Positions 6,391-27,556 of a DNA stretch of 27,556 bases are shown here, one piece after another. The DNA lies in contig CAYPKD010000004.1 in NCBI GenBank assembly GCA_964411255.1, positions 178,147 to 205,702 of the forward strand. Direction: 5' to 3'. A program made the position numbers and the translations under genes. Under the pieces are notes generated by a model. That model made no database searches, was not told the DNA's origin, and worked only from the letters and a program-made list of their open reading frames with translations. This DNA comes from an uncultured Gammaproteobacteria bacterium. GTDB lineage: Bacteria > Patescibacteriota > Patescibacteriia > UBA11705 > DATKZF01. Within the stretch, counting starts at the first letter, position 1. The number at the start of each line of letters is the position of its first letter.

Positions 6391-7077
6391 CTAAAGCTTT
6401 TTCATTTCATAAATCTGATATTCATTATCAACAAAACTTTCTATTGCCAAAGGAGTTCTTATGCTCTTTATTAAAATTATTTCATATCCATATTGTCTTG
6501 CTATATCCTTAATAGCATCTAAATCAGCGAAATTCCCAGTACCTAAAAGCAATCGGCCATTTTTTTTCAAAAACTTTTCAGCGTCTTTGATATATTTTTC
6601 TAAACCCTGATAATTATAATCAAAACCTGCTTGCAGTAAAATCTCCTCATCAGGATTATCTCCTTTATTAAATGGGTGATTCCAGAAAATAAAATCAAAT
6701 TTCTCATCTCTGGGCAAAGGCTCATACATGTTGCCTTCATAAACTGGAATATCCAAATTCAATTTTTCAAAATTCAGTCTTGCATTTTGAACTGCAACCG
6801 GATTTATGTCTGTAGCTGAAACTTTTGCGCCTTTTAATGCAGCAAACACTGCAATAATTCCAATCCCAGTACCAATCTCTAACATTTTTTTATTGCCAAC
6901 AATTTTGGGCACTTCTTTTGCGAACCAAACGCTATCAGTAAAATATTTTGGTGAAAAAACATTTGGCAATATCGTAAACTCAATTCCTTCAACTTCAATA
7001 TTATAAGGTTTATCATGCTTTTTAATCTGCTCAAAAACCTCTCGCACCTCCTTTTCCCATTGCTGTTTTGTTACCAT
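6391..7077 (-). CDS. Class I SAM-dependent methyltransferase (MTS/HemK-PrmC-like small-domain MTase)
   Basis: The SAM-binding motif is LEIGTGIGIIAV, the acidic loop is SATDIN, and the catalytic motif FWNHPF resembles NPPY/DPPY. The start is placed at the Met at 7077, because the upstream Met at 7137 would overlap the preceding MazG gene by 59 nt. ATG 7077 is 1 nt from the MazG stop at 7079. Confidence 0.65.
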   Translation of the reverse strand: MVTKQQWEKEVREVFEQIKKHDKPYNIEVEGIEFTILPNVFSPKYFTDSVWFAKEVPKIVGNKKMLEIGTGIGIIAVFAALKGAKVSATDINPVAVQNARLNFEKLNLDIPVYEGNMYEPLPRDEKFDFIFWNHPFNKGDNPDEEILLQAGFDYNYQGLEKYIKDAEKFLKKNGRLLLGTGNFADLDAIKDIARQYGYEIILIKSIRTPLAIESFVDNEYQIYEMKKL

Positions 7078-7078
7078 A

Positions 7079-7396
7079 TTATAAATGCTTTTCATTAAGC
7101 TGTTCCCAATCCCAATTTCTGTCCTTATTAATCTCAATTTTATTCAAAATTTCCTTTTCCGCATCAACTTCAAAAACTCCGCATAAATGTAAAATACGAA
7201 TTAATGCATCAGCTAATTCTTCTTTAAATCCATGTGGGCCTTCAATTTGTTTTTTGCGATAAGCTTCATAAGCTTCAGCTATTTCAGTGTGAATCAAAGC
7301 AATCTTTTCCGGCACATTAACTTTATCTTTATCAGTTACCCAACCCTTTTCATCAGCCAGTTTTAAAATTTCTTCAGTTAATTTATTTATTTCCAT
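7079..7396 (-). CDS. MazG-like NTP pyrophosphohydrolase (105 aa)
   Basis: It has IALIHTEIAEAYEA and EELADALIRILHLC plus NKDR, the same architecture as the 4673 paralog. Confidence 0.65.
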   Translation of the reverse strand: MEINKLTEEILKLADEKGWVTDKDKVNVPEKIALIHTEIAEAYEAYRKKQIEGPHGFKEELADALIRILHLCGVFEVDAEKEILNKIEINKDRNWDWEQLNEKHL

Positions 7397-7397
7397 A

Positions 7398-7658
7398 TTA
7401 TTTAAAAGAAATTATTTGATAACCATATTTTTCAATATCTTCTTTAGACCAAAATTTCAAATCCTTTGTCTTCAAAACATAAGTAACTTGTTTTTCGATT
7501 TCTCTGCCTGTATATTCTTTTGTTTTTGGATCCCATTCTTTTAAAACCAAGTCATCGCCGGAATTGCATTCAAAGTCAGCTAATCGCAATTCAAATGTTT
7601 TATCACCATCAATAATTTTTTGAAAATATTTTGGCCAGACTTTTTTTTCAATATTCAT
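7398..7658 (-). CDS. ASCH/PUA-like small beta-barrel protein (DUF3850-like), 86 aa
   Basis: It contains the KTFELRLADFECNSGDDLVLKEW pattern typical of ASCH-like domains. This is weaker than the enzyme calls. Confidence 0.45.
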   Translation of the reverse strand: MNIEKKVWPKYFQKIIDGDKTFELRLADFECNSGDDLVLKEWDPKTKEYTGREIEKQVTYVLKTKDLKFWSKEDIEKYGYQIISFK

Positions 7659-7663
7659 ATAAA

Positions 7664-8074
7664 TTATTTAATTTTTTGGATATCCCCATTTAATATTATT
7701 GGCTTTGTATGTAAAATTTCCTGGGTATAACGTAACACCTGTTTTTCAGGTGGTGTATAAAGCAAAAATGTTTTTTTCTTCAAATAATATGCTAATCCAA
7801 TCTCAATTAAAGTTGCTCCACCAATATACCCTTTCATTCCATTCTTTGGATGATTCAATACTAAAAAAATATCGCTATCTTCCAGCTTCATCATTGAATC
7901 ACGCATAATATCCATAGATTCTGTATGATCAGGATCCATATTTAATTCTGGATTTTCCACGCATTGTTCTGTATCAGCAGGAACCAATACCTCAAATCCC
8001 ATTTCCTCTAATTTTTTCTGAGTCTCAAGCATCTCTTTTGCAAAATGCATTGAACCGCCAATATAAATTTTCAT
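7664..8074 (-). CDS. Protein of the nucleoside 2-deoxyribosyltransferase / DNPH1(Rcl)-like family (dNMP N-glycosidase-like)
   Basis: An N-terminal MKIYIGGSM resembles YxxGxxR/M. The core SDIFLVLNHPKNGMKGYIGGATLIEIGLAYYLKKKTFLL fits the (A/S)DxxVAxL...S.GTxxExGxA...GKPV pattern of that superfamily. Confidence 0.6.
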   Translation of the reverse strand: MKIYIGGSMHFAKEMLETQKKLEEMGFEVLVPADTEQCVENPELNMDPDHTESMDIMRDSMMKLEDSDIFLVLNHPKNGMKGYIGGATLIEIGLAYYLKKKTFLLYTPPEKQVLRYTQEILHTKPIILNGDIQKIK

Positions 8075-8075
8075 A

Positions 8076-8393
8076 TTAGTTTGTTTTATCTATCTTCGCT
8101 TCCAAATCATCCATCACTTGCCAAAATTTATTTTCCAAATCAACATCAGTTTTATTGGCTAAAACCATAACGCTCCACAATACATCAACCAATTCATGTT
8201 CCAGTGCCTCTTTCACGTCTTTATCAAGATTTCGATAATTACCACGGGCCATTAATATCTTTGATAAATCTCCCACATCTTTTACCATACCCATAAAAAC
8301 CTGGTCAGTTCCCCACTTTGTGGGTTCAATTTTTTCATATTTTGCTTTAATTTCAACAGCTCGTTCAGTCATTTTGTTAAAATCATTTTTCAA
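8076..8393 (-). CDS. MazG-like NTP pyrophosphohydrolase (105 aa), third paralog
   Basis: It has VKDVGDLSKILMA and EALEHELVDVLWSVMVLA, the two-helix MazG-like signature. Confidence 0.6.
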   Translation of the reverse strand: MKNDFNKMTERAVEIKAKYEKIEPTKWGTDQVFMGMVKDVGDLSKILMARGNYRNLDKDVKEALEHELVDVLWSVMVLANKTDVDLENKFWQVMDDLEAKIDKTN

Positions 8394-8406
8394 ATTTTTT
8401 ATTTAT

Positions 8407-8445
8407 CAGCGAATTTTTAACATCAATTGTTAGAAAAATTCGCTG
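8407..8445. repeat. 12-bp perfect inverted repeat CAGCGAATTTTT-N15-AAAAATTCGCTG with a palindromic loop, lying between two minus-strand genes
   Basis: The arms are at 8407-8418 and 8434-8445. The loop AACATCAATTGTTAG is itself palindromic, and no U-tract follows on either strand. Confidence 0.55.
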
Positions 8446-8449
8446 GAAT

Positions 8450-9142
8450 TTAATCGTGAACAACTTTATATTTTAAAACTAACACATTTCCCATTCTATT
8501 TATGTTAATCAATTCCACTTTTGGAGCTATGTCCGCTAAAAATCCCTCTCCATCACACAAAGTCGGGGCATTTCTACCTCCTAAAATCAAATCTCCTATT
8601 TTTAAGTTTATTTCATCAACCAAATTGTCTTTTAATAAGGAATAAATCAGTTCTCCTCCACCCTCAACCATTAATTCATCAACTCCAAGCTCCTTAATCT
8701 TTTCCAATGTTCTTTTCAGATCAACTCTATCTTTTCCCAATACAAAAATTTTGCATACTTTATCTAGCTCATTAATTTTTTCTTGTGGAGTTCTTTCTGT
8801 GGTAAAAATTATTTTTTCTCCATCTCCCCTGGTTAAAAAGTCTGAGTCTAATTTTAAATCGCTCACATCAGAAACAACAGCTATTTTCATCGGCTGCCTG
8901 CTTTTTCCTAGCTCCATACGCTTCTTTTGCCTCTCTTCTGTTTTTACATCTAAAGCTGAATCATCAAACAGCAAAGTTTTACCGCCAATCATTACTGCAT
9001 CAGCTCTTATTCTTCCATCATAAAGCATATCTCGATTATCATCGCTTGAGATTGGAGTACATGTTTTTTTATAATTTGAAATCTTGCCATCTAATGTCAT
9101 TCCAGTAACTAAAAATACAAATGGTCTTTTATTCTCATTCAT
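8450..9142 (-). CDS. RibD C-terminal-domain / dihydrofolate-reductase-like reductase (diaminohydroxyphosphoribosylaminopyrimidine reductase-like)
   Basis: The motifs FLVTGMTLDGKI, MIGGKTL and LMVEGGGELIYSLL are typical of the RibD_C/DHFR-like fold. Confidence 0.65.
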   Translation of the reverse strand: MNENKRPFVFLVTGMTLDGKISNYKKTCTPISSDDNRDMLYDGRIRADAVMIGGKTLLFDDSALDVKTEERQKKRMELGKSRQPMKIAVVSDVSDLKLDSDFLTRGDGEKIIFTTERTPQEKINELDKVCKIFVLGKDRVDLKRTLEKIKELGVDELMVEGGGELIYSLLKDNLVDEINLKIGDLILGGRNAPTLCDGEGFLADIAPKVELININRMGNVLVLKYKVVHD

Positions 9143-9633: not shown

Positions 9634-9666
9634 ATTTTTTTACCTAGACTCTTTTGTGAGTGTAAT

Positions 9667-9792
9667 AAACAAAAAGTACAACGTCATTCCCACGAAAGCA
9701 GGAATCCAGGACTGATTGCTCTGGACACCTGCTTTCGCTAGTGTGACAAACAAAGAGTACAGCGTCATTCCTGCGAAGGCAGGAATCCAGGC
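9667..9792. repeat. Two direct copies of a 45-nt hairpin repeat, A1 at 9667-9711 and A2 at 9748-9792, with an inverted partial copy between them
   Basis: The repeat unit is AAACAAA(A/G)AGTACA(A/G)CGTCATTCC(C/T)(A/G)CGAA(A/G)GCAGGAATCCAGG. A2 contains a perfect 8-bp stem, ATTCCTGC-GAAG-GCAGGAAT. Confidence 0.7.
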
Positions 9793-10134
9793 TTAGCTTA
9801 ATTCATTATATAAATCAATCCAATTTGGATTGTCTTCTTCTATTAATTTTAACTTCCACTTCCTTTTCCACTTCTTTATACACTTTTCCCTCCAAATTGC
9901 ATCCTCAATACTATCATGCTCCTCCAAATAAACTAATGTATGTACTTTATATCTTTTTGTAAAGGATTCATTAATATCATCCTTATGTTCATAAACTCTT
10001 CTAGCAATATCATTTGTAACGCCAGTATATAAGGTTCCATTTCTCTTACTGGCCATTATATAAACATAGTAAGATTTCATATAAATTTCATGCCGATAAC
10101 TAATATGTGGATTCCTGCCTTCGCAGGAATGACG
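9763..10134. mobile_element. Putative miniature mobile unit: the GIY-YIG ORF bracketed by perfect 26-bp inverted repeats (9763-9788 and 10109-10134)
   Basis: CGTCATTCCTGCGAAGGCAGGAATCC at 9763-9788 is the exact reverse complement of GGATTCCTGCCTTCGCAGGAATGACG at 10109-10134. No target-site duplication could be identified by eye. Confidence 0.35.
9793..10080 (-). CDS. GIY-YIG nuclease-superfamily small protein (YhbQ/UPF0213-like), 95 aa
   Basis: YVYIMASKRNGTLYTGVTNDIARRVYEH matches the GIY-(x10)-YIG motif, with the conserved Arg and Glu. Confidence 0.8.
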   Translation of the reverse strand: MKSYYVYIMASKRNGTLYTGVTNDIARRVYEHKDDINESFTKRYKVHTLVYLEEHDSIEDAIWREKCIKKWKRKWKLKLIEEDNPNWIDLYNELS

Positions 10135-10245
10135 TAAACGGTATCGGCATTATGATGACTTTTCCTCAGGAATGACGAAAACCGTATCGGCATTATGATG
10201 ACTTTTTCTCGGGGATGACAAAAACAGAGTCGGCATTATAATTTA
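10088..10245. repeat. Repeat cluster downstream of the GIY-YIG gene: an inverted copy of the hairpin repeat (B1, 10109-10134) plus a 42-nt tandem direct repeat x2.6 (10136-10177, 10178-10219, partial 10220-10245)
   Basis: AAACGGTATCGGCATTATGATGACTTTTCCTCAGGAATGACG and AAAACCGTATCGGCATTATGATGACTTTTTCTCGGGGATGAC are followed by AAAAACAGAGTCGGCATTATAATTT. An inverted copy, CATGCCGATA, of the repeat core GTATCGGCATT lies at 10089-10098. Confidence 0.7.
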
Positions 10246-10667
10246 TCTCTAATTAATTCAGCCACTTCATGCAATTCCTTTTCAGGTGAAATTTCTCTTG
10301 ATCCTGGTCGATATAAAAATTTTCTTGGATCATATTGATGAATTCCCGTATCTTTTGGCTTTCTGGGAATTAAATGTAAATGAAAATGAGGAATAGACTG
10401 CCCAGCATCTTTGCCCTCATTCCAGGCGTGATTAAATCCAGTGACGCCAAACAATTCCATAAGCGCTGGTTTTAGTTCCTCAGCCAAATCCAGCACAGCC
10501 ATTATTTCATCTTCTGTCATCTTTTCAATTGCTTCTACCTGTCTTTTTGGCACAATTAAAATATGACCAGGCACAATCGGCATATTTGTCGGAAAAGCAT
10601 AAGCCAAATCATTTTCAATAATGATTCTGTTTTTTATATCTTCTAAGTCATTAAATGAAATTGGCAT
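10236..10667 (-). CDS. HIT-family (histidine triad) nucleotide hydrolase/transferase
   Basis: The histidine triad is HFHLHLIP (HxHxHxx), and the N-terminal core is GHILIVPKR. Confidence 0.8.
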   Translation of the reverse strand: MPISFNDLEDIKNRIIIENDLAYAFPTNMPIVPGHILIVPKRQVEAIEKMTEDEIMAVLDLAEELKPALMELFGVTGFNHAWNEGKDAGQSIPHFHLHLIPRKPKDTGIHQYDPRKFLYRPGSREISPEKELHEVAELIRDKL

Positions 10668-11331: not shown

Positions 11332-11418
11332 TGGCGGAGAGGACAGGATTTGAACCTGCAAGTCCACAAGGGACGCACGCTTTCCAAGCGTGTGCCTTAC
11401 CATTCGGCGCACCTCTCC
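11332..11418 (-). tRNA. tRNA-Ser (anticodon GGA), class II with a long variable arm and an encoded 3' CCA
   Basis: The reverse complement reads GGAGAGG-TG-CGCC-GAATGGTAA-GGC-A-CACGC-TTGGAAA-GCGTG-CGTCCCTTGTGGACTTG-CAGGTTCAAATCCTG-TCCTCTCC-G-CCA. The anticodon loop is U33-GGA-A37, the D-stem is 3 bp and the variable arm is long (GTCC-CTTGT-GGAC), both typical of tRNA-Ser. Confidence 0.9.
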
Positions 11419-11675: not shown

Positions 11676-12548
11676 ATGGCTCAAGTTGATATGCACATAC
11701 ATTCGCATTTTTCAGATGGATCAGATTCTCCTACTCAAATCGTTCAAAAAGCAAAATCACTTGGATTAAAAGCAATTTGTCTGACTGACCATGACAATTA
11801 TGAAGGCTTGCCAGAATTCGTTCAGGCTTGCAGGGAACATAATATGAATTTTCTTTGCGGTATTGAAATAATGACATTTTTTCAGGGAATAAAGATTGAA
11901 ATACTGGCTTATGGCATTGATTTGCCCAGAGATGAAAAGTTAAAAGACATACTTTCTAAAAATTGGAAAGCTCATAATTTAAAAGTTCAAAAAATGCTTA
12001 ATGGATATTCTGAACATGGAATTTTTACTGCCACAGTAAACGATATTAAAAGAGCAATGGATTATAAAGGACCGTTTGCCACCAAGGCTTGGCTACGGGA
12101 ATTTAGAGTTCAGGAATTTGATGTTGAGAAAAAGCAAGCCAAACAAGAAACTGCCAAAAATGGTGTGGCTTATGCGCCATACGATCAAGATAAATTCATT
12201 ACTCCAGAAGAAGTGTTTGATTTTGTTCATGCGCTCGGCTGGAGAGCAGTTTTAGCTCATGGCGGAGTTATCAGCAAAGAAATACCTGAGTTTCAAAAGT
12301 GGACAGATTTTATTAAACTTCTTGTTTTGCAATTAAAACCGCTTGGTTTATTCGGAGTTGAAGCATATCACTACCGAAATGAAAAACAATATACTGAATT
12401 TCTTGTTCAAATGGCCCGAGAGCATGGCTTGGCAATAACTGGCGGATCTGATTATCATGGCAGATTTCAATCAAGGCAAATCGGGCAATTTGCAATCAGT
12501 TATGAAAATTTTTTGCAATTTAAAGAGCTAATAAACATAACCGCGTAA
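11676..12548 (+). CDS. PHP-domain phosphoesterase (TrpH/YciV-like; 3',5'-nucleoside bisphosphate phosphatase / RNase AM family), paralog 1
   Basis: The N-terminus MHIHSHFSDGSDSPTQIVQKAKSLGLKAICLTDHDN carries the PHP motif I HxH and motif II DHD. Later metal-ligand histidines are LAHGG and GGSDYHG. Confidence 0.8.
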   Translation: MAQVDMHIHSHFSDGSDSPTQIVQKAKSLGLKAICLTDHDNYEGLPEFVQACREHNMNFLCGIEIMTFFQGIKIEILAYGIDLPRDEKLKDILSKNWKAHNLKVQKMLNGYSEHGIFTATVNDIKRAMDYKGPFATKAWLREFRVQEFDVEKKQAKQETAKNGVAYAPYDQDKFITPEEVFDFVHALGWRAVLAHGGVISKEIPEFQKWTDFIKLLVLQLKPLGLFGVEAYHYRNEKQYTEFLVQMAREHGLAITGGSDYHGRFQSRQIGQFAISYENFLQFKELINITA

Positions 12549-12563
12549 TTCGTGGTTTTTTTT
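12539..12563 (+). terminator. Intrinsic terminator after PHP paralog 1
   Basis: The hairpin AACCGCG-TAATT-CGTGGTT (7 bp including one G:U) overlaps the stop codon and is followed by TTTTTTTT. Confidence 0.6.
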
Positions 12564-12570
12564 AATATTC

Positions 12571-12599
12571 TTGACTTTTTCCCTATAAAAGCCTAAACT
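12571..12599 (+). promoter_or_regulatory. Candidate promoter for PHP paralog 2: TTGACT at 12571-12576, weak -10 TAAACT at 12594-12599 after a 17-nt spacer
   Basis: Same -35 hexamer as the paralog 1 promoter. The -10 is imperfect. The SD AACAGGGGGAAAAAATG is at 12623-12639. Confidence 0.4.
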
Positions 12600-12636
12600 T
12601 TTATAACATATATGTTCTTTCAAACAGGGGGAAAAA

Positions 12637-13530
12637 ATGCCTTTTGAAGCTGATATGCATAGCCATTCATACTATTCTGATGGTTATAATTCTCCAGCTG
12701 AATTAGTCAAAACAGCAAAATCCCAAGGGTTAAAGGCAATTTGTCTGACAGATCATGATAATTTTAACGGCATACATGAATTTATCAGAGCCTGCAAATT
12801 AGCACGACTTGATTTCATCCATGCAATTGAGCTGACAACTACCTATAAAGGTGTAATCGTTCATATATTAGGCTATGGATTAGATCTGAATAATCACACT
12901 CTTAATAAAGTGGTCTTTTCTCAATGGTATGTTCATAACCTCAGAATGACTCAAATATTGAGAAAATATAGAAAAAAAAAGGTTATGGATGTTTCATTGG
13001 ATAATTTAAAAAGGTCAGTCCAATGCAAAGGCCCTTGTATGTTTGACACTTGGCTAATAGATTTTCGCATGAGAATGGCTGAAATTTCTTTTGAACAAGC
13101 AAAAAATGAAATTAGCGGTAATGGATTTGTTAATACTGAATATGATAGTGAATTATTACTCACTGCCCCTCAGGCAGTAGATCTAATTGATAATGCTGGA
13201 GGATTAGCAGTGATTGCTCATCCTGGTGAAATAAGAAGAAGGCTTGAAAACAGAGGGATTCACGTAAATTGGAATAATTTCATTCAATTATGTATTTCCA
13301 TTCTTGAAAACCAGGGTTTAGCTGGAATAGAAGTGTCTCATCCCAGAAATGATGATGAACAAACTGAATTTTTAACCCATCTGGCAGATCAACGAGGATT
13401 AATAAAATTTGGCGGGTCTGATTATCATGGAAAATTTAAATCATATCTTCCTGGTCAATGCGGCATTAGTTATAAAGCTTTTCAGCAGATTAAAGCCAAA
13501 ATTATTAAAAAAAGACCGCGAAAATCGTGA
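12637..13530 (+). CDS. PHP-domain phosphoesterase (TrpH/YciV-like), paralog 2
   Basis: MHSHSYYSDGYNSPAELVKTAKSQGLKAICLTDHDN is collinear with paralog 1, as are IAHPGE and GGSDYHG. Paralog 2 has a basic C-terminal tail, KKRPRKS. Confidence 0.8.
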   Translation: MPFEADMHSHSYYSDGYNSPAELVKTAKSQGLKAICLTDHDNFNGIHEFIRACKLARLDFIHAIELTTTYKGVIVHILGYGLDLNNHTLNKVVFSQWYVHNLRMTQILRKYRKKKVMDVSLDNLKRSVQCKGPCMFDTWLIDFRMRMAEISFEQAKNEISGNGFVNTEYDSELLLTAPQAVDLIDNAGGLAVIAHPGEIRRRLENRGIHVNWNNFIQLCISILENQGLAGIEVSHPRNDDEQTEFLTHLADQRGLIKFGGSDYHGKFKSYLPGQCGISYKAFQQIKAKIIKKRPRKS

Positions 13531-13830: not shown

Positions 13831-13868
13831 CCAGCTTAAATCAAAGCTGGCTTTATTTTGTTTTTTTA
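13831..13868. terminator. Bidirectional intrinsic terminator between the zinc-finger gene (+) and the convergent membrane-protein gene (-)
   Basis: The stem CCAGCTT-AAATCA-AAGCTGG is flanked by an A-run upstream and TTTATTTTGTTTTTTT downstream. Confidence 0.6.
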
Positions 13869-15317
13869 ATCTAAATCATAATCATATTGAGCCCAGAACT
13901 TATACTTTGACAGAGTAGAGCTTTGCCATTCTTTGTTCATATAAATTGATTTGTGATTCAACCATGCAGTATAATCATATCTTATCTTTGAATCATCAAT
14001 ATCTTTTAATCTTTCCATTTGATTAAATATATCCACAGACAGTCTGCTTAAATATCTCGTATCTAGTTCCTTATCCTGACCAGCTAAATAGCGGTCAATA
14101 TTTACCTTGGCAATCTTTGCCTGCATATTTATACCAGTCATATACATTAAATATACGATAGAAACAATCAAGCCGATTTTAACAAATAATCTATAATGTT
14201 TTCTGAAAATCACGATTATAAGCAAGGCTAATAATATTAATCCAATATAAATAATAAAATGCCAGACCAAAAATCTTAATTGAGTTAAGCCATATGCCTG
14301 TTCATACAAAAACATTCTCTTTAATGCTGATGCTGTAATAATCAATGTTTGAAAAACAAAAAGACTGGTTAAAATCTTTCCTAAGTCGATTTTTTTTGAT
14401 TTGTTGATTCTGTACATTACATAACTAATAATCAAAACAAGGAAAGTAATGGCGCACATTTGATAAAATCCTTTATGCACATAATCTGCATAGGATATAT
14501 CATATTTTTTTATTACCTCATGTCCTCCAAAAAGAAACATTATTTGAATGCTAATAAACAATAAGAAGAATGCATTTAAAACTCCTAACACAATATTGCT
14601 TATTAAATAGTCTTTTTTCTTTTCTTCAGCCTTTGCCTCAATAGGCTTCTCATCTTCTTTTTTCTTTTTAAATCTTTTTTGTAAAAGATACGCATAAAAA
14701 ACTCCGCTAAAAAAGATGAACAAAGCTATTGTTCTCACAACTCTCCAAACATTATGAGAGTCAACATCAAAATCAAAAAAATCAGTCATCCACTTTTCAA
14801 AAATCATGTCAGCAGCGGCAAAAAGGCTGCCAAAAATTAAAACCAGCGGAATAACGATTGCCAGAGCAATTACAACCTTACTTCCCTTCTTAAATCCAAA
14901 CTTACCAATACCTGAGAATGATGAAAACATTTTGGAAAAGAATCTTCCAATAAACATTAATAATGAAAACGGAAATATTCTCTTCACCTTTCTGATCGGC
15001 ATTTCATCAACTCCAAACCAGAATAAGAAAAGAATTAATAAAAAGATTGCTGCTAAAGGCGCAACAACATGCACAAAAGTGTTTTGGTAAATTGCCACTG
15101 AGCCAGCATACCATAAGATTGGAATGCAAAATAAAAGCGACCATGCGTTTGCTAATTTTTTAATAAAAACAAGCCGCAAAATAACTGCTAAAATCAGCAG
15201 TCCTAGGATAAAGACACTAAAATTAATGCCTAAATTTGTTGAGGGGAAAAGCCAGTCATACAAAATGGCAAAAATAACTGCCATCAGTAAAACAATTAAT
15301 TTTTGTTTCCTGGCCAT
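13866..15317 (-). CDS. Large polytopic membrane protein (about 12 TM, 483 aa) with a roughly 80-aa soluble C-terminal domain, function unknown
   Basis: It is hydrophobic throughout, with a Lys-rich cytoplasmic loop KKRFKKKKEDEKPIEAKAEEKKK. I recognise no catalytic motif. Confidence 0.55.
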   Translation of the reverse strand: MARKQKLIVLLMAVIFAILYDWLFPSTNLGINFSVFILGLLILAVILRLVFIKKLANAWSLLFCIPILWYAGSVAIYQNTFVHVVAPLAAIFLLILFLFWFGVDEMPIRKVKRIFPFSLLMFIGRFFSKMFSSFSGIGKFGFKKGSKVVIALAIVIPLVLIFGSLFAAADMIFEKWMTDFFDFDVDSHNVWRVVRTIALFIFFSGVFYAYLLQKRFKKKKEDEKPIEAKAEEKKKDYLISNIVLGVLNAFFLLFISIQIMFLFGGHEVIKKYDISYADYVHKGFYQMCAITFLVLIISYVMYRINKSKKIDLGKILTSLFVFQTLIITASALKRMFLYEQAYGLTQLRFLVWHFIIYIGLILLALLIIVIFRKHYRLFVKIGLIVSIVYLMYMTGINMQAKIAKVNIDRYLAGQDKELDTRYLSRLSVDIFNQMERLKDIDDSKIRYDYTAWLNHKSIYMNKEWQSSTLSKYKFWAQYDYDLD

Positions 15318-15404
15318 ACTATTTAGGTTAATAATAAGTAAATAAACTTTACCATAAATACGTTAAAAAATAAAGTCCCACCAACGATGCTAACGGTTTA
15401 TATC

Positions 15405-15745
15405 TTGCCAGTTTCTCGCGAGAAACTGGACGAGTTCTGTAGTTTTTTATCAACGCTTCTACTGGTTTATAGCATCGGGGTCTGGGGGGCTCATTGCCCA
15501 TGGTAAGATATAAAAACGTAATTATCGCTTCGCATTTGAGCCCCCCAGAGCTTTTTGCTTACTTTTTGGTTACAAAAAGTAAGTCGGCGCCTGCCCTGAG
15601 CGAAGTCGAAGGGTAAGCCGAAATTGGAAAGAGTTATCGCAATCCCAAAAAAGCTGCGTTATAAAACAAGGTAAACAGCTGTCAGCCAAAATCTCAGTGA
15701 ATAATAGCACATCCCAGCTGACGCCGGATTTTTTTCTTTAAATCA
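15405..15745. ncRNA. Candidate structured non-coding RNA or long structured leader. It has several long perfect stems and I could not assign it to a known family.
   Basis: Stem S0 is CCAGTTTCTCG/CGAGAAACTGG (15409-15430, 11 bp). Stem S1 is TCTGGGGGGCTCA at 15481-15493 paired with TGAGCCCCCCAGA at 15537-15549 (13 bp, enclosing 43 nt). Stem S2 is CTTACTTTTT-GGTTAC-AAAAAGTAAG (15558-15583, 10 bp). Local GC is elevated and there is no ORF longer than 40 aa. I did not recognise the conserved tmRNA, RNase P, SRP or 6S blocks. Confidence 0.3.
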
Positions 15746-15773
15746 AAAAAGACGCTTTCAAAGCGCCTTTTTA
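15744..15773. terminator. Bidirectional intrinsic terminator (A-run, hairpin, T-run) downstream of the DsbA-like gene and at the end of the structured region
   Basis: The sequence is CAAAAAA-GACGCTTTCAAAGCGCC-TTTTT, with a 5-7-bp stem. Confidence 0.55.
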
Positions 15774-15788
15774 TATATAAAATAATTT

Positions 15789-16493
15789 TTATTTATCCAA
15801 TGCTGCATCAATTTCACTCTTAAATTGTTCATATGGCAATGCACCACTAAGTAACTTCCCGTTTATAAATGTTCCTGGCGTACCGCTGATCCCTGCTTTT
15901 TGAGCTCCAAGCATATCATTTGCAATTTTTTGAGCCATATCACCGTTATCTAAACAACTATTGAATTCACCTGTGTTTAAGCCCAAACCAGCTGCTGCTT
16001 TTTTAAATTCATCATTGCCTAAACCACCGCCTTCATTTAAGTCGAAAAGTTTATCATGCATTTCCCAGAACTTACCCTGCAAACCTGCACATTCAGCTGC
16101 TTCAGCAGCTTTTTGCGCATTTTCATGAAATGACAATGGGAAATTTCTGAAAACAATTGCCACCTTATCTCCGTACTCTTTAGCTATCTGCTGCATTGTG
16201 GCTGTATGTCTAAAACAATATGGGCATTCATAATCAGAATATTCAATAATTTGAACTTTTGCATTTTTACTTCCTTTCACATATTCACTATCACTAATTG
16301 ACTGAACTGGCTCTGCCTGAGGCTGTTCTGGCTGCTCAGCCTGTTGTTGTGGCTGCGCCTGGACTTTTTCAGCCAAATTAACTGATTCACTTTGGCCTAG
16401 AACAAATACTAATAGCCCAATAAAACATAAAACGCTGACTACAGCTAAGCCAACGAAAAAGCCGAGCCAAAAGTTTGATTTATTTTTTTCCAT
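15789..16493 (-). CDS. Membrane-anchored DsbA-family thiol:disulfide oxidoreductase (thioredoxin fold, CPYC active site)
   Basis: It has an N-terminal TM helix, a Gln/Pro/Glu-rich linker (QAQPQQQAEQPEQPQAEP), then YECPYCFRH and the usual DsbA helical insertion. Confidence 0.8.
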   Translation of the reverse strand: MEKNKSNFWLGFFVGLAVVSVLCFIGLLVFVLGQSESVNLAEKVQAQPQQQAEQPEQPQAEPVQSISDSEYVKGSKNAKVQIIEYSDYECPYCFRHTATMQQIAKEYGDKVAIVFRNFPLSFHENAQKAAEAAECAGLQGKFWEMHDKLFDLNEGGGLGNDEFKKAAAGLGLNTGEFNSCLDNGDMAQKIANDMLGAQKAGISGTPGTFINGKLLSGALPYEQFKSEIDAALDK

Positions 16494-16628: not shown

Positions 16629-18128
16629 CTAATGACCAATTTTAAATATCTCAACTTTATTTGTTGCCATTACACCAAGCTTTATCCGATCATCAGATGA
16701 AGCATAAAGAGTAAATAATTTCTCACCTTTCTTTATCCTTTGACCAAAAAACGCATGCAAATGAACTCCCGCAAGCTTATCGCTTGGCGCACCAAGGTTC
16801 ATGCAAATTTCTTTAATTGCCTTGTTGTCAACAAAATTAATTTTACCCGTTTTTTTAGCATGAATTTCATATCTTTTAGCGCCAGAAGTGAAATCTTCTG
16901 AATGCTGGTCAGCTTTTCCGCCTTGCGCGATTACAATTTCATTCATTTTATCCCAGGCAGCGCCTGAAGTTAATTGCCGCATGGCAATTTTTCTGCCCTG
17001 ACCTTTTTTTGCAAACCCTTTTAATTCTAATAATTCACCTGCTAGTTTTACTGATTTTCTTTCTAAATCAAGCGGACGAAGCTCATGCCTTTGCAAAACT
17101 CTGAATACATCCCGAGCTTCCAGCGCTGGGCCAATTCCTCTGCCCAGCGGCTCTACGGCCTTTGTTTTCACTGCTTTTACCTTCATACCAAACCTTTTTC
17201 CCAAAGCAATGAATTTCTTCTCGATCATATTTGCTTTTGCCATATCAGGCACTTTGGTTGTCGGTCCGACCGGAATGTCAATAATTAAATAATCAACACC
17301 GGTCGCCACTTTTTTAGCTAAAATACTAACAATCATTTTATCATACGGCTCAAGAGCCAATGGTTTTGAAACTTTTATAATCTTATCATCAGCTGGAGCA
17401 AGGCTTAGTCCCCCGCCCCAAACCAGACAGCCATGTGTCTTTTTTACAATTTTTTTAATCTCATCCATTGAAAATGATACTGGGCAAATTACTTCCATTG
17501 TGTCTGCTGTACCTGCCGGAGATGTAATTGCTCTGGATGAAGTCTTTGGGATATATAGCCCGAGCGAAGCGATAATTGGAATAATTAACGGCGTAATTCT
17601 ATTACCTGACAGGCCGCCGACTGAATGCTTATCTACAGCTTTAACATTCAGGTTCATTTTCTCACCAGTTTCAGCCATTGCTTTTGCCACGTAATAGAGC
17701 TCGTCAAGCGAATAATCTTTTACAAAACTGGAGGCAGCATAATAAGTGGTTTCAACCGAACCTAGCACTCCGTCAACAATATCTTTAATAACCGCATAAA
17801 TTTCTTTGTATGTTACTGGTTTTCCCATTAACTTTTTATTTATTGTCTGAATAGAAAGTGGCCGGCTCATAATGCTGGCTTCAACAATATCGCCTGATTC
17901 TACTTGCACTTTTTTCCATACTTCCTTGAACAAGCCTAATTCTCCAGGTCGAACCTTTGTATTTGTCGTATCAGCGGTAACGATCGCTTTTTTATTTTTA
18001 CTCCAAATCAAATTCAACCTGTCTCCAGGATAAATTCCATAGCTTTCCGCTTCATCTTCATTTAAAACAGCGATCATTTTATCGCCTGTTGAAAAATCCA
18101 ATTTTTTGCATTTTAAATAAAACGCCAT
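16629..18128 (-). CDS. AMP phosphorylase (thymidine-phosphorylase family II enzyme with an N-terminal extension)
   Basis: At 499 aa it is longer than a classical TP. It has glycosyltransferase-family-3 core motifs (SVGGLSGNRITP, TSSRAITSPAGTADT) and a C-terminal alpha/beta domain, and it sits next to RuBisCO and the R15P isomerase. Confidence 0.8.
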   Translation of the reverse strand: MAFYLKCKKLDFSTGDKMIAVLNEDEAESYGIYPGDRLNLIWSKNKKAIVTADTTNTKVRPGELGLFKEVWKKVQVESGDIVEASIMSRPLSIQTINKKLMGKPVTYKEIYAVIKDIVDGVLGSVETTYYAASSFVKDYSLDELYYVAKAMAETGEKMNLNVKAVDKHSVGGLSGNRITPLIIPIIASLGLYIPKTSSRAITSPAGTADTMEVICPVSFSMDEIKKIVKKTHGCLVWGGGLSLAPADDKIIKVSKPLALEPYDKMIVSILAKKVATGVDYLIIDIPVGPTTKVPDMAKANMIEKKFIALGKRFGMKVKAVKTKAVEPLGRGIGPALEARDVFRVLQRHELRPLDLERKSVKLAGELLELKGFAKKGQGRKIAMRQLTSGAAWDKMNEIVIAQGGKADQHSEDFTSGAKRYEIHAKKTGKINFVDNKAIKEICMNLGAPSDKLAGVHLHAFFGQRIKKGEKLFTLYASSDDRIKLGVMATNKVEIFKIGH

Positions 18129-18140
18129 ATAGTATTTATA

Positions 18141-19406
18141 TTATTTTTTCCAAAACTGTAAAGCCCTTGCCAATTCTTCATGATCTTCTGAATATTCTTT
18201 TAATTTTACTCCACGCTCAATGGCTTGCACTGCCTGGCGGCAAGCCCTGGCGCCGGCAACTGAACCGTCTGGATGGCCGTGAATACCAGCGCCAAAATTG
18301 GCGATTAGATTTATTCCGAGTATTTCAACCAATTTAGGCAAAAGCCCTGGATGCAAACCACCAGAAGCAATTGGCAAAACCGGTTTAATTTTACTCCAAT
18401 CCTCTTTGACAATATTGTGGCTTTTCCAGTCTTCCTTCATCAATTGATTTACTGTTAAAACATCTTCCCGATCGCCCTCCATTTTACCAACTACTGTTCC
18501 AGTATGCAATTGGTCAACTCCGGCCAGTCTGGCTAATTTTGCAATAACCAGCATACTCATCCCATGTTTTTTATTTCTGGTAAATAATGCGTGTCCTGCC
18601 CGGTGGCCATGAATTATTAATCCTAAATTTTTCTTTCGTAAATATTGTACATTATCTAAACCAGTTGAAACGATATCAACCATCACGCATTTTCCACCCA
18701 ATTTTTTCACTAATTTTGCCCGTTCAAGCATTTGTTCAGGCGGTGCAGTAATATTACAGGCATATACTTTTTTCTGTTTTGTTTCTTTTTCAACTTTTTT
18801 CTTCCAATACAAAACCTTTTTCACTCTGTCTGCAAAACGGTTAAAGCTCATGTTAGTTAAATTCTCATCGTCTTTAACCAAATCAATGCCATTCAGCCAT
18901 ACAGCAGCTGACAATTTTGCCTGCTGGGCCGCAGTTAAACCTACTTTTGGTTTTATAATACTTCCTAAAATCACTCTGCCTTTTATTTTTAAAATCTTTC
19001 GGATGCCGTCAATGCCAAATGCCGGCCCCTTAAAACTGGCGCTGTATTTCACTGGAAATTCAATATCTTCCCATCTTAAATTTTTTATTAACTTCATACC
19101 GTAAATATTGCCTCCAATGCTTGATAAAAGTTGAGGAATACTGCCCCTTTCAAATAAATCTAAAGGATAAGCAACTTTTATTATCTTTTTCTTTTCATTT
19201 GCAAAAAAGACTCTGGCCTTTAATTTTTCTGCTAATTTGGGGTTCAGTGTCTGTAATTCTGTCCATGATCCAATAGAACTCTCCCCAGCAACTGCATCAG
19301 CTGCTTCCTGAAAGCTGACTCCTCTTGGCTCAACATAAAAAGTAGCGATAATTTCCTTATCCTTTTTTGGCTTGTATCCAATTTCAACAAATTTTACTAC
19401 TGACAT
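18141..19406 (-). CDS. rbcL: RuBisCO large subunit, short form II/III-like (421 aa)
   Basis: The motifs GIDLVKDDENL (GxDFxKDDE), IIKPKVGL (KPKLGL), IHGHRAGHA (HxHRAxH) and ASGGLHPG are present. No small subunit is present. Confidence 0.85.
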   Translation of the reverse strand: MSVVKFVEIGYKPKKDKEIIATFYVEPRGVSFQEAADAVAGESSIGSWTELQTLNPKLAEKLKARVFFANEKKKIIKVAYPLDLFERGSIPQLLSSIGGNIYGMKLIKNLRWEDIEFPVKYSASFKGPAFGIDGIRKILKIKGRVILGSIIKPKVGLTAAQQAKLSAAVWLNGIDLVKDDENLTNMSFNRFADRVKKVLYWKKKVEKETKQKKVYACNITAPPEQMLERAKLVKKLGGKCVMVDIVSTGLDNVQYLRKKNLGLIIHGHRAGHALFTRNKKHGMSMLVIAKLARLAGVDQLHTGTVVGKMEGDREDVLTVNQLMKEDWKSHNIVKEDWSKIKPVLPIASGGLHPGLLPKLVEILGINLIANFGAGIHGHPDGSVAGARACRQAVQAIERGVKLKEYSEDHEELARALQFWKK

Positions 19407-19410
19407 AACA

Positions 19411-19502
19411 TTGATAGTTACGAAGTTATGATGTTATGAAGTTACGTTGTTATTTAAAATATATATAACGTCGTAACTTAGTAACCTCGTAACATCATAA
19501 CG
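19411..19502. repeat. Imperfect palindrome of about 90 bp built from heptamer units (AGTTAYG on the left, CGTAACT-type on the right) around an AT-rich centre, lying between the HAD-like gene stop and the RuBisCO start
   Basis: The sequence is TTGATAGTTACGAAGTTATGATGTTATGAAGTTACGTTGTTAT-TTAAAATATATAT-AACGTCGTAACTTAGTAACCTCGTAACATCATAACG. Confidence 0.6.
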
Positions 19503-19914
19503 ATTTTATTAGTTTTACAATTTTTTCAATATCATCTAAGGCGAAGTCAACTTCATCTGTTTCATTATTTTTACTAAACAAAACTGTTTTAATTCCTACT
19601 TGTTTTGCTGGAAGCAAATTGCTAATAAGATCATCAATCATTAAACATTCTTCTGGTTTTATATTCAAATCATTTATAAATTTTTGATATGTATTTGCAT
19701 CTGTTTTACTTTGGCCTGATTCAGCGCAGGCAATGATAGGATCAAGCCCTAACTGATTTCCAATCTCTTTCACTGTGTTTGGAGATAAATTACTAATGGT
19801 TGCATTAATAATCCCTTTTGCTTTTAACTGTTCAACAATATCCTTGGCTTTAGGGTCAATCTGGCCATTTTTATAAACCACGCCATATAAATCCCAAATA
19901 ATTGCTTTAATCAT
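19495..19914 (-). CDS. Small HAD-like hydrolase domain protein (139 aa; a possible phosphatase)
   Basis: IIWDLYGVV sits at the motif-I position (DxDGx-like, with the second Asp replaced), and MIDDLISNL sits at the motif-IV position. It is short for a HAD enzyme, so the assignment is tentative. Confidence 0.45.
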   Translation of the reverse strand: MIKAIIWDLYGVVYKNGQIDPKAKDIVEQLKAKGIINATISNLSPNTVKEIGNQLGLDPIIACAESGQSKTDANTYQKFINDLNIKPEECLMIDDLISNLLPAKQVGIKTVLFSKNNETDEVDFALDDIEKIVKLIKSL

Positions 19915-20851
19915 ATTTTTTTTTCAAAAACTTATACTTCTTTGTCGTTTTCTTTGAAATATATTTTGGTTTTAATATTCCCAATTCTGTAATAAAACCT
20001 GTGATAAACCTGGCAGGAATAATATCAAATGCATAATTTATAATTTCCAATCCCTTTGGCGCTCTGGACCAAATTTCATTTGCTTTTCTTTGTTCAATTT
20101 CTAAATTTTTCAAATGTTTAGTTTCAATATCAAGCTTTAATGCCTGAGTTGCTATATATACTGGAATTTTTGCTTCACGCGCTGCTAAGGCCAGGCCTAA
20201 AGATCCTATCTTATTAACTGCATCACCGTCCAAAGTAATTGCATCACAGCCTAAAATTAATAAATCCATATCATATCCTTTGCTATACTGGCTGACAAAA
20301 AACGGACCTGCGCTGTCAACCACTTGGGTATTTTTAATATTCATTTTTAATAATTCTTTTGAAGTCGTTCTGCCCTGAAATAATGGCCTGGTTTCATTAT
20401 TAAAAACATGGATTTTTTTTCTTTTCTTTTTGGCCGCTTCTAATATACTTATTGCGGTAGAGGAATGACAATGAGTAAAGATATTATCATTATTACTAAT
20501 CAATTTCTCACCATAATCTTTAATAATTCTTTTATTTGTCATTATTTCAAATAAAAAACTGTCAATTCCTCTTTTTATTAAAACTCTTAACTTTTTTATA
20601 TCTAAATCCTGATTTTTATCTAAATGATATGAAACAAATCGTACAGCATTTTCTGCCATTGGCTCTGTTTCTCTGGCCCTGCTCAAGTAATATCCAATTT
20701 TTTTCACTCTGCTGATTAATTGACGGGGAGTTTTCAGCCTTTTCTCCTGAGAAACTTTTTTTAAGGTATTTAAAACAGCTTCAGCTATATTGGTTGCCCC
20801 CTGAATTTCAATGTTAACGATTTTTTTATAAATTTGGTCGATGTAATTCAT
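19907..20851 (-). CDS. Ribose-1,5-bisphosphate isomerase (eIF-2B alpha/beta/delta-like e2b2 family)
   Basis: An e2b2/MtnA-fold signature (GATNIAEAVL ... ILGCDAITLDGDAVNKIGS) is present. Its stop overlaps the HAD-like start by 8 nt. Confidence 0.75.
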   Translation of the reverse strand: MNYIDQIYKKIVNIEIQGATNIAEAVLNTLKKVSQEKRLKTPRQLISRVKKIGYYLSRARETEPMAENAVRFVSYHLDKNQDLDIKKLRVLIKRGIDSFLFEIMTNKRIIKDYGEKLISNNDNIFTHCHSSTAISILEAAKKKRKKIHVFNNETRPLFQGRTTSKELLKMNIKNTQVVDSAGPFFVSQYSKGYDMDLLILGCDAITLDGDAVNKIGSLGLALAAREAKIPVYIATQALKLDIETKHLKNLEIEQRKANEIWSRAPKGLEIINYAFDIIPARFITGFITELGILKPKYISKKTTKKYKFLKKKYD

Positions 20852-26731: not shown

Positions 26732-27556
26732 TCAAACCCTAACAATCCTTTTTACATAATTATCACCTTCTTGGGCAATAATATAAGCAGTGTTACCTTC
26801 TAAATGCTCAAAGTGATAAATTTTATCACATTCTTCACTGACTTTTTCTCCTTTTTCATTCACTATAAACCATTTGCCGTCTTTTTGTGCTGCAAAAGCA
26901 ATTTTACCTCCAATATCTTGCGGGGCACCAACCTTATCATAATCCTGCCCGACTTTTTCTCCTTTTTCATTTACTATAAATGCCTTGCCATCTTTTTGTG
27001 CTCCAAAAGCAATCCTACCTCTAATATCTTGTGGAACCGAAACATTATCATAATCCTGCCCGACTTTTTCTCCTTTTTCATTTACTGTAAACCATTTATC
27101 ATCTTTTTTTGCTGCAAAAACAATCCTGCCTCCTATATCATGTGGCCTCCAAACATGATCATAATCCTGCCCGACTTTTTCTCCTTTTTCATTTATTATA
27201 AACCATTTTTCATCTTTTTTTGCTCTAAAAACAATTTTACCACCAATATCTTGTAGGTCATAAACCTCATCATAATCCTGCCCAACTTTTTCTCCTTTTT
27301 CATTTACTACAAACCATTCGGTGCCATTATGTGCTACAAAAACAATCCTACCTCCAATATCTTGCGGTTCATCAACCTGATCATAAACCTGCCCAACTTT
27401 TTCTCCTTTTTCATTTACTATAAAATATTTTCCATCTTTTTTTGCTCTAAAAGCAATTTTGCCTCCAATATCTTGCGGATCCCAAACATTATCATAATCC
27501 TGCCCGACTTTTTCTCCTTTTTCATTTACTGTAAACCATTTATCATCTTTTTTTGC
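26732..27556 (-). CDS. C-terminal part of a repeat protein made of 37-aa WG-like (here KWF) beta-repeats. The N-terminus lies beyond the right edge.
   Basis: Own translation of the minus strand gives repeats of the form ...AKKDDKWFTVNEKGEKVGQDYDNVWDPQDIGGKIAFR AKKDGKYFIVNEKGEKVGQVYDQVDEPQDIGGRIVFV..., and the reading ends in ...YVKRIVRV-stop, with the TGA being the reverse complement of 26732-26734. The frame is open to the window end. The + strand track ORF 26804-27256 is the antisense shadow of this gene. Confidence 0.7.
   Translation of the reverse strand, partial: AKKDDKWFTVNEKGEKVGQDYDNVWDPQDIGGKIAFRAKKDGKYFIVNEKGEKVGQVYDQVDEPQDIGGRIVFVAHNGTEWFVVNEKGEKVGQDYDEVYDLQDIGGKIVFRAKKDEKWFIINEKGEKVGQDYDHVWRPHDIGGRIVFAAKKDDKWFTVNEKGEKVGQDYDNVSVPQDIRGRIAFGAQKDGKAFIVNEKGEKVGQDYDKVGAPQDIGGKIAFAAQKDGKWFIVNEKGEKVSEECDKIYHFEHLEGNTAYIIAQEGDNYVKRIVRV
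26834..27556. repeat. 111-bp tandem DNA repeats (at least 6.5 copies) that encode the 37-aa protein repeats
   Basis: The anchor CTGCCC(G/A)ACTTTTTCTCC recurs at 26945, 27056, 27167, 27278, 27389 and 27500, an exact 111-nt spacing. Confidence 0.8.

Follow-up and report, generated by a model that had tools for sequence, protein, structure and literature searches.

MITEs and modular repeats such as the Correia/NEMIS elements of Neisseria, RUP and BOX of pneumococcus, and ERIC are non-coding, intergenic and strongly self-complementary units of 100-400 nt. BOX elements are modular mosaics, and close strains differ in whether they carry a given repeat of this sort; a MITE, by definition, has terminal inverted repeats and a target duplication of fixed length. 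The PATEs, which derive from IS200/IS605, lack terminal inverted repeats, have subterminal hairpins at either end, insert 3' of a fixed tetra- or pentanucleotide, and depend for transposition on hairpins in single-strand DNA. Rickettsia palindromic elements (RPE) are 100-150 nt long, belong to one genus, and also occur in frame inside protein-coding genes. Many classes of REP have a conserved 5' GTAG. REP/BIME elements and REPINs are short extragenic palindromes, mobilised by RAYT, in enterobacteria and pseudomonads (PMC2817692, PMC3116915, PMC3337134).

A literature search for MITEs in Patescibacteria returned nothing relevant, and such repeat families seem not to have been described in these bacteria. 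Here we examine a 471-nt interval (15318-15788) in a stretch of 27,556 nucleotides, hereafter the window, from a genome of the Patescibacteria (CPR) with a GC content of ~33%, and conclude that the interval probably holds a mosaic insertion built of interspersed hairpin repeats, non-autonomous and similar to REP/BIME, REPIN or MITE elements.

The genes around the interval are read from the minus strand, in the order IF-2B-family protein, HAD hydrolase, RuBisCO large-subunit homologue, thymidine/AMP-phosphorylase-like protein, DsbA-like thioredoxin (15789-16493), the 471-nt interval, and DUF4153 membrane protein (13866-15317). The identical sequence, insertion included, is found in JGI contigs Ga0180433_10005500 and Ga0309772_1000015 (364,661 nt) and in ENA and Logan assemblies, and the window strain has the insertion, with no difference in sequence, in several independent assemblies. 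From the source genome we compared ~47 kb, made up of the window and ~9 kb on each side that was reached via the proteins at the window edges. The features on which the argument turns are the following, with positions counted in the window:

15346-15356, minus strand: promoter-like box of the extended -10 type, TATGGTAAAGT, for the DUF4153 gene, whose ATG is ~30 nt downstream
~15375-15739, strandless: lineage-specific insertion of ~365 nt, absent from relatives with the same gene order
15378-15396, minus strand: terminator-like hairpin and T run at the promoter-proximal end of the insertion (consensus match alone)
15408-15429, strandless: perfect 22-nt palindrome CCAGTTTCTCG/CGAGAAACTGG, from the inverted-repeat scan, in a part of the insertion that is absent from copy 2
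15471-15634, plus strand: core of the dispersed repeat, three hairpins and then the tail ATTGGAAAG, with a second copy (copy 2) in the same genome
15481-15549, plus strand: hairpin 1, a perfect 13-bp G/C-rich helix of TCTGGGGGGCTCA (15481-15493) with TGAGCCCCCCAGA (15537-15549), closing 43 nt
15558-15583, plus strand: hairpin 2, a perfect 11-bp stem (15558-15568 with 15573-15583) and a 4-nt loop, from the inverted-repeat scan
15584-15621, plus strand: hairpin 3, a 5-bp host stem TCGGC/GCCGA with a 24-nt module at its tip
15590-15613, plus strand: the 24-nt module CCTGCCCTGAGC-GAA-GTCGAAGGG at the tip of hairpin 3, also found across phyla
15635-15739, strandless: right-hand part of the insertion, absent from copy 2 (further stems predicted from folds)
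15745-15772, minus strand: intrinsic terminator of the DsbA-like gene, with A run, hairpin and T run, terminator-like on both strands

A preliminary description of this DNA had named four structures in the interval, and all are present within 1 nt of the coordinates that it gave. The 13-bp helix closing a 43-nt loop at 15481-15549 is perfect, as stated there, and the bidirectional terminator is the hairpin with A run and T run at 15745-15772; the 11-bp palindrome without a loop exists and is perfect, but lies at 15408-15429 and not at 15409-15430, and the hairpin at 15558-15583 has a perfect stem of 11 bp where 10 had been counted. It had also called the interval gene-free and elevated in GC, which agrees with the lack of any ORF of more than 50 aa and with a GC content that rises from 0.33 in the window as a whole to 0.44 in 15400-15699 and to 0.48 in the core. 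By shuffle tests the stems are no product of chance: three perfect inverted repeats of at least 11 bp occurred in 0 of 2000 shuffles of the 471 nt, even one such repeat occurred in just 1% of them, and the fold of the interval gave z scores against dinucleotide shuffles of -5.2 (plus strand) and -5.0 (minus strand). In the right-hand part, at 15635-15739, two or three more stems closed by CGGCG/CGCCG are predicted, followed by a T run on the plus strand.

The same description had taken the stems for a candidate structured RNA, and the covariance-model scan that it proposed, together with ARAGORN, gave nothing over them. At gathering score no Rfam family matches the interval, and when the threshold was relaxed to E values up to 10 over 15200-15900 there was still no match over the stems, the sub-threshold matches being terminator look-alikes (15737-15815) and noise; ARAGORN found no tmRNA. 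RNase P RNA, tmRNA, SRP RNA, 6S RNA and the other Rfam families were rejected on the absence of both a gathering-score match and an ARAGORN call. The sole Rfam match of the window at gathering score is a tRNA at 11335-11418. Six-frame translation of the insertion, with the module masked, found no relative among 5.8 billion proteins; since this search was empty, the insertion is neither a recognisable pseudogene nor, through other copies, a source of spurious ORFs. Comparison of the insertion by blastn with phage and plasmid records gave no match.

That ~15375-15739 is an insertion, and a lineage-specific one, follows from the comparison with relatives, for which we fetched the contigs carrying DUF4153 homologues and aligned the spacers between the DsbA-like gene and the DUF4153 gene. 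Three relatives keep the synteny of RuBisCO, phosphorylase, DsbA-like and DUF4153 genes, with DUF4153 proteins that are 93% (L008/L100/L101), 61% (L009/L010) and 59% (L011/L012) identical to that of the window, and in these the spacer measures 95 nt (in L008), 108 nt and 102 nt, respectively, with the insertion absent from every one. The spacers of 95-108 nt keep just the terminator and the -10 box, and it is for this reason that the ~365 nt between terminator and promoter are to be read as an insertion. Remoter DUF4153 orthologues have upstream spacers of 150, 131 and 22 nt and no such element, and a protein-guided scan over metagenome contigs yielded nothing beyond the 93% relative, again free of the insertion. 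One gain on the branch to the window explains this with far greater parsimony than several exact losses would, and the insertion arose after the split from the relative with the 93% identical DUF4153 protein. The preliminary description had thought the element might be lineage-specific, which the relatives' spacers bear out; it had further proposed that a homologous region either unstructured or absent in relatives would speak against an RNA, and this is what we found in part, the spacers of 95-108 nt persisting without the structured portion.

Both flanks of the insertion have counterparts in the relatives. At 15745-15772 the 3' end of the DsbA-like gene carries a G+C-rich hairpin and, behind it, a U run, as in an intrinsic terminator, and the relatives have a terminator hairpin at the same place after the stop codon of the DsbA-like gene, with a stem sequence that is different in each genome. 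On the other side, downstream of the insertion and ~30-45 nt before the ATG, a TATG(G/A)TAA block is common to all four aligned spacers, and we infer that it is the extended -10 promoter of the DUF4153 gene. Because the flanks are A/T runs, the boundaries of the insertion are uncertain by ~5 nt. At the empty site of L008 the two junction sequences, TTTGATTT.. and TTTATTTT.., have one common counterpart, TTTGATTTTT, in low-complexity A/T sequence, and a target duplication of ~8-15 nt (TTTGATTT.. / TTTATTTT..) at the insertion is possible. No terminal inverted repeats were found: neither the ends of the insertion nor those of the core are complementary, and the inverted-repeat scan yielded no terminal pair. 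The 93% relative has what amounts to a reciprocal insertion, with a RuBisCO/phosphorylase spacer of 115 nt vs 12 nt in the window.

The second line of evidence is that the core occurs twice. Copy 2 lies at 16382-16558 of contig L102, the minus strand of which corresponds to the plus orientation of the window, and matches 15471-15634 with 84% identity over 165 nt (E 3e-39). It is situated ~20 kb from copy 1 on a contig of 364 kb that carries both, where two small ORFs enclose the 400-nt spacer that holds it, and with respect to the chromosome and to their flanking genes the two copies point the same way. The unit that they have in common extends from AGCA(T/C)C-GGGGTCTGGGGGG to ATTGGAAAG and has all three core hairpins inside; the left flanks of the two cores are alike (AGCATC vs AGCACC), and the outer ~100 nt on each side of the insertion (~200 nt in total, palindrome included) have no second copy. 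The core thus recurs at an unrelated locus of its genome, as interspersed repeats in general do, and it is this recurrence of the 165-base core that makes dispersed hairpin-repeat DNA the most likely identity of the interval. A single-copy RNA gene does not fit a core that is dispersed in this way.

In all, there are two core copies in ~47 kb of genome. The window has no second copy inside it, a covariance model built from the two copies found no third in 131 kb of collected sequence, core patterns had no match in IMG/VR, and exact 20-mers of the G-rich arm were absent from genome_contigs and metagenome_contigs, which are collections without the source genome. The palindrome at 15408-15429 likewise had no further copy in the 131 kb of collected sequence or in IMG/VR. 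Logan contigs (k = 31) from three assemblies break off at 15474 or begin at 15494, and a further contig terminates within copy 2; these breaks, with their 21-nt overlap, would be as expected from an exact repeat of ~39 nt in further copies, or alternatively might reflect a loss of coverage at the G-rich hairpin.

Between the two copies the hairpins have been kept. Over 37 proposed pairs in the two sequences, pairing is retained in 72 of 74 cells, and the disruptions are confined to hairpin 1, of whose 13 pairs copy 2 retains 10 contiguous and one isolated; in the loop of this hairpin the first half has diverged in copy 2 and the second half, GCTTCGCATTTG, is conserved. The preliminary description had asked whether compensatory changes would be found, and they are, in two stems and between two core copies of the same genome: the outer pair of hairpin 2, C15558-G15583, has become G-C in copy 2, and the host-stem pair C15585-G15620 of hairpin 3 has become T-A, each by a double change. 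Hairpin 3 has two more changes, one from G.T to G-C and one from C-G to T.G, with which pairing persists on the plus strand only. Changed columns were fewer among paired positions (8/74) than among unpaired ones (19/81; Fisher p = 0.055); a shuffle control was uninformative, as 129 of 500 shuffles reached the observed value. Because two stems were kept by compensatory changes in copy 2, formation of the hairpins seems to matter, a conclusion that with two sequences is suggestive.

Such a pattern bears directly on the rival that survives best, namely that the 165-nt three-hairpin unit is a lineage-specific, multi-copy structured RNA whose hairpins are selected at the RNA level, whether as a small RNA or, within read-through or 3'-UTR transcripts, as an element acting in cis, for example a stabiliser or a protein-binding platform. 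We regard this as unlikely, but as deserving more weight than any of the other alternatives. It keeps that weight because two compensatory double changes and two wobble-compatible ones, the latter specific to a strand, are what such an RNA would show, although compensatory changes fit a function in RNA and a function in DNA equally. The wobble pairs favour the plus strand, on which hairpin 3 is 3-4 kcal/mol more stable than on the minus strand in both copies; the core of the window, folded alone, has a z score of -4.8 vs shuffles; and the like orientation of the two copies relative to neighbouring genes would also suit an RNA. The favoured plus strand is, however, antisense to all neighbouring genes, copy 2 alone folds no better than its shuffles (z = -1.2), the unit has no Rfam match and is absent from close relatives, and perfect, bulge-free stems suit young DNA palindromes better than old RNAs. 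On reading the two sequences we found no promoter or terminator common to the boundaries of both cores, and in copy 2 a terminator-like hairpin adjoins the core on the gene-sense strand; two cores without common transcription signals argue against a self-contained small-RNA gene, though not decisively.

The reading as dispersed hairpin-repeat DNA accommodates these observations as follows. The interval consists of three successive parts: the DsbA-like gene's terminator, a recent insertion of ~365 nt, and the short promoter region of the DUF4153 gene. The 165-nt core would be a member of a dispersed family of non-coding repeats, one hairpin of which holds a nested module found across phyla. Copying would be carried out by a hairpin-recognising enzyme encoded elsewhere, probably acting on single-stranded or cruciform DNA, and the hairpins would be the part that needs conservation, presumably since this trans-acting enzyme recognises them. 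The slot between terminator and promoter would have been a harmless place to land. No transposase was seen in the sequence examined. We assign the insertion to a general kind of repeat and to no named family because it has no terminal inverted repeats of the MITE type and because REP elements are recognised by tens to hundreds of copies per genome and by a RAYT gene flanked by the repeats, whereas the comparison covered ~47 kb of genome.

An improbable alternative is that the palindrome and the other inverted repeats are sites for dimeric proteins that control the DUF4153 gene or the DsbA-like gene. The loopless, perfect palindrome at 15408-15429 has the typical form of an operator and lies ~70 nt upstream of the -10 box, but relatives have the same gene pair without any part of the insertion, no regulator gene is nearby, and the palindrome is not repeated elsewhere in the sequence examined.

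Still less probable is that the DUF4153 gene has here a riboswitch or other long, structured 5' leader, which had been offered in the preliminary description for the gene at 13866-15317 and for which the position upstream of that gene, the common strand and the high degree of structure would speak. The orthologues' upstream spacers of 22-150 nt lack the element, the extended -10 box that the relatives share is nearer to the ATG than the insertion is, the insertion ends, immediately upstream of this box, in a hairpin that resembles a terminator, and no riboswitch family matches. We accordingly rejected the riboswitch or 5' leader class, whose members lie between promoter and start codon and are conserved upstream of orthologous genes. 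Least credible of all is a divergent housekeeping RNA gene (RNase P RNA, tmRNA, SRP RNA or 6S RNA) or a degraded remnant of a protein gene or prophage. The ~360 nt and raised GC do resemble RNase P RNA or tmRNA, but no covariance-model match over the stems appeared at E values up to 10, ARAGORN called no tmRNA, such an RNA would be neither missing from the spacer of the 93% relative nor partly duplicated, and the six-frame, phage and plasmid searches for a remnant were empty.

The module at the tip of hairpin 3 has a distribution of its own. With its centre left free (CCTGCCCTGAGC-NNN-GTCGAAGGG) it has 37 exact matches in IMG/VR contigs, where by a rough estimate far less than one would be expected by chance, and a 28-nt form, in which two further bases at either end are fixed, is matched 50 times in GTDB species genomes, including Acidobacteriota, Chloroflexota, Planctomycetota, Nitrospirota, Verrucomicrobiota and Omnitrophota, as well as one cyanobacterium, a Flavobacterium isolate and several classes of Patescibacteria. 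All 21 fixed positions are identical from Acidobacteriota to Patescibacteria and the Flavobacterium isolate, and the three central bases are free to vary. The module can be read as a small hairpin in which CCCU would pair with AGGG, followed by tandem G.A pairs and by G-C and C-G pairs, with the variable bases at the position of the loop. Searches of the literature with the module sequence and its translations gave no match.

The places in which the module is found are varied. The 93% relative has the same module in its RuBisCO/phosphorylase spacer, beside a perfect 12-bp inverted repeat. In Acidobacteriota the module is an insertion of 24-25 nt in the terminal UUAC loop of some Acido-Lenti-1 copies (Rfam), with uninterrupted copies of that RNA a few hundred bases from interrupted ones, and the module-bearing acidobacterial loci do match RF01687. 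At three loci (L065, L074 and L090) it lies inside the loop of another copy of the module, and at four others (L052, L061, L081 and L088), which represent four lineages, it lies at the same place in sequence that, with frame and homology judged by eye, seems to be coding and homologous.

Three candidate rules or partners for the module were rejected. It does not always cap a hairpin, as a flanking stem of at least 5 bp was present in ~8-10 of 87 copies, where a control led us to expect ~2. Insertion 3' of TTAC, as for IS608, fits the Acido-Lenti-1 hosts and the window and fails in the unbiased IMG/VR set. The small GIY-YIG nuclease of the window (9793-10080) was considered as a linked gene, and tblastn gave one weak match in the 87 module-bearing loci (753 kb); its best homologues include no paralogue from this genome.

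Tentatively, and with no great confidence, we suggest that the module may act as an ultra-small unit of insertion, either spreading among bacterial phyla or arising in them repeatedly, that lands in hairpin loops; its landing sites would then tend to be the repeat core, Acido-Lenti-1 RNA, its own copies and homologous protein-coding genes. Were this so, it would imply an undescribed and widespread machinery that writes a fixed short sequence into DNA, and the 165-nt core would be one lineage-specific carrier. The nested module is for us the part of the locus most worth following up.

For annotation, the case indicates that GC-rich, stem-dense islands in the AT-rich genomes of Patescibacteria should not be taken for RNA genes by default. 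Families of repeats like this one are predictable breakpoints for short-read assemblies, and such repeats mark recent genome change in organisms whose genomes are tiny.

Set against the systems described at the outset, the locus resembles each in some respects. The apparent in-frame presence of the module inside coding sequence at four loci recalls RPE, from which the module differs in being 24 nt long and in crossing phyla. Acido-Lenti-1 RNA (RF01687; PMC2864571) has the module in the terminal UUAC loop of some acidobacterial copies, and the host hairpin of the window, with the module subtracted, reads stem-UUAC-stem on the minus strand; the window has no RF01687 match at E values up to 10, and the nested module is all that the two have in common. 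Like the MITEs and modular repeats, the insertion is non-coding, intergenic, strongly self-complementary, a mosaic, and present in one strain and missing from its relatives, and it differs from MITEs in having no terminal inverted repeats and a target duplication that is ambiguous within A/T runs.

With REP/BIME elements the insertion has in common the arrangement in mosaic clusters behind the 3' ends of genes, and a non-coding, non-autonomous character with hairpins that are maintained. The 5' GTAG is absent from the core, the unit is longer (165 nt, with three different hairpins), two copies were found, the host is a member of the Patescibacteria with ~33% GC, and no gene for a RAYT (a Y1 HUH transposase) is among the Pfam-annotated genes of the ~47 kb. 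The likeness to REPINs is in hairpin 1, where, as in those elements, two inverted arms surround a less conserved spacer: both copies are intergenic, and the arms are conserved and the first half of the 43-nt spacer has diverged. In the case of the PATEs, two copies give too few sites for a cleavage or target motif and no TnpA or TnpB gene was seen in the sequence examined, but the core resembles these elements in its hairpins near both ends and its lack of terminal inverted repeats, and a dependence on hairpins in single-stranded DNA like theirs would explain why the hairpins are conserved.

The 24-nt sequence at the tip of the third hairpin of the insertion's core, hereafter the module, recurs at loci far removed from this genome:

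15590-15613: the module, CCTGCCCTGAGC-NNN-GTCGAAGGG, found also at the fetched loci L013-L099

All 21 of its 21 fixed positions are invariant among contigs and genomes from many bacterial phyla. It has 37 matches in IMG/VR, and the 28-nt form, which carries two more fixed bases on each side, has 50 in GTDB; a literature search for the module returned no match. Its settings include both intergenic and coding-looking sequence, and at three loci (L018, L040 and L047) it lies in tandem half-site arrays.

The relative whose DUF4153 protein is 93% identical carries a separate insertion (L008 405-519) in the spacer between its RuBisCO and phosphorylase genes, which measures 115 nt there as against 12 nt in the window, and this insertion is composed of the module and an inverted repeat whose 12-bp arms match perfectly (ATACTAATGATA/TATCATTAGTAT). 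Units resembling it are present in the genome of the 61% relative, at the module-bearing loci L057 and L082.

Contigs of the Logan assemblies (k = 31) from three sequencing runs end at identical bases within the copies of the core repeat (15474 and 15494 in the window; 16466 in the second copy, on contig L102 of the same genome), while assemblies with larger k pass through these positions. The breaks reflect either further near-identical copies or a loss of coverage at the G-rich hairpin. Within the insertion, 14 nt of its unshared left part (15397-15410) are 93% complementary to 15501-15514 in the loop of hairpin 1 (15481-15549), a pairing that interleaves with the hairpin in the manner of a pseudoknot or an alternative fold. 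This loop segment is without conservation in the second copy, and the complementarity may be a chance match (p about 0.05, by a rough estimate).

Elsewhere in the window, repeats surround a small nuclease gene:

9793-10080, minus strand: GIY-YIG nuclease gene (95 aa), within 9651-10252
10124-10252: three 43-nt tandem repeats, also flanking this gene

Copies of the hairpin ACGTCATTCC(T/C)(G/A)CGAA(G/A)GCAGGAATCCAGG border the gene on both sides in inverted orientation. Bipolaricaulota, Deltaproteobacteria, Nitrospirae and Omnitrophica have homologues of its product (65-76% identity), and a large share of these homologues lie on contigs of <1 kb, as if flanking repeats broke the assemblies.

Two PHP-domain paralogues stand side by side at 11676-13530, their gene starts 74% identical over 136 nt; given that the 93% relative has one such gene (L008 4790-5695) as opposed to two, the duplication is recent. 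At the right end of the window, 111-nt repeats follow one another in a long tandem array (26782-27525) that continues in contig L104 (7148-9867). Each unit comprises 37 codons, with 76-81% identity to a reference copy, and in L104 the array overlaps two genes called on what is the minus strand of the window, at 6869-8467 and 8464-9975 of L104, neither of which has a Pfam match. To the right of the insertion lies a gene cluster:

16629-20851: genes for an IF-2B-family protein, a HAD hydrolase, a RuBisCO large-subunit homologue and a thymidine/AMP-phosphorylase-like protein

A cluster of this composition typifies the archaeal/CPR route of AMP salvage, in which the IF-2B-family protein is the candidate for ribose-1,5-bisphosphate isomerase. 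An imperfect inverted repeat (19425-19501; 28-nt arms, 82% complementary, 21 nt apart) sits directly upstream of the RuBisCO gene start.

At four loci (L052, L061, L081 and L088), from Victivallales, Kiritimatiellia, Lentisphaerae and Planctomycetota genomes, the module occupies an identical position within what, judged by eye, resembles homologous coding sequence, and the DNA around it has diverged. There it appears to be in frame and to encode the peptide ..YPST(x)LRAGG...

In Acidobacteriota the module interrupts a known structured RNA, Acido-Lenti-1 RNA (RF01687), where it adds 24-25 nt to the terminal UUAC loop, and copies of this RNA without it lie close by:

L050 3589-3658: Acido-Lenti-1 RNA interrupted by the module
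L059 1152-1220: the same
L083 7690-7759: the same
L089 7190-7259: the same
L059 1368-1413: Acido-Lenti-1 RNA without the module
L059 1939-1984: Acido-Lenti-1 RNA without the module
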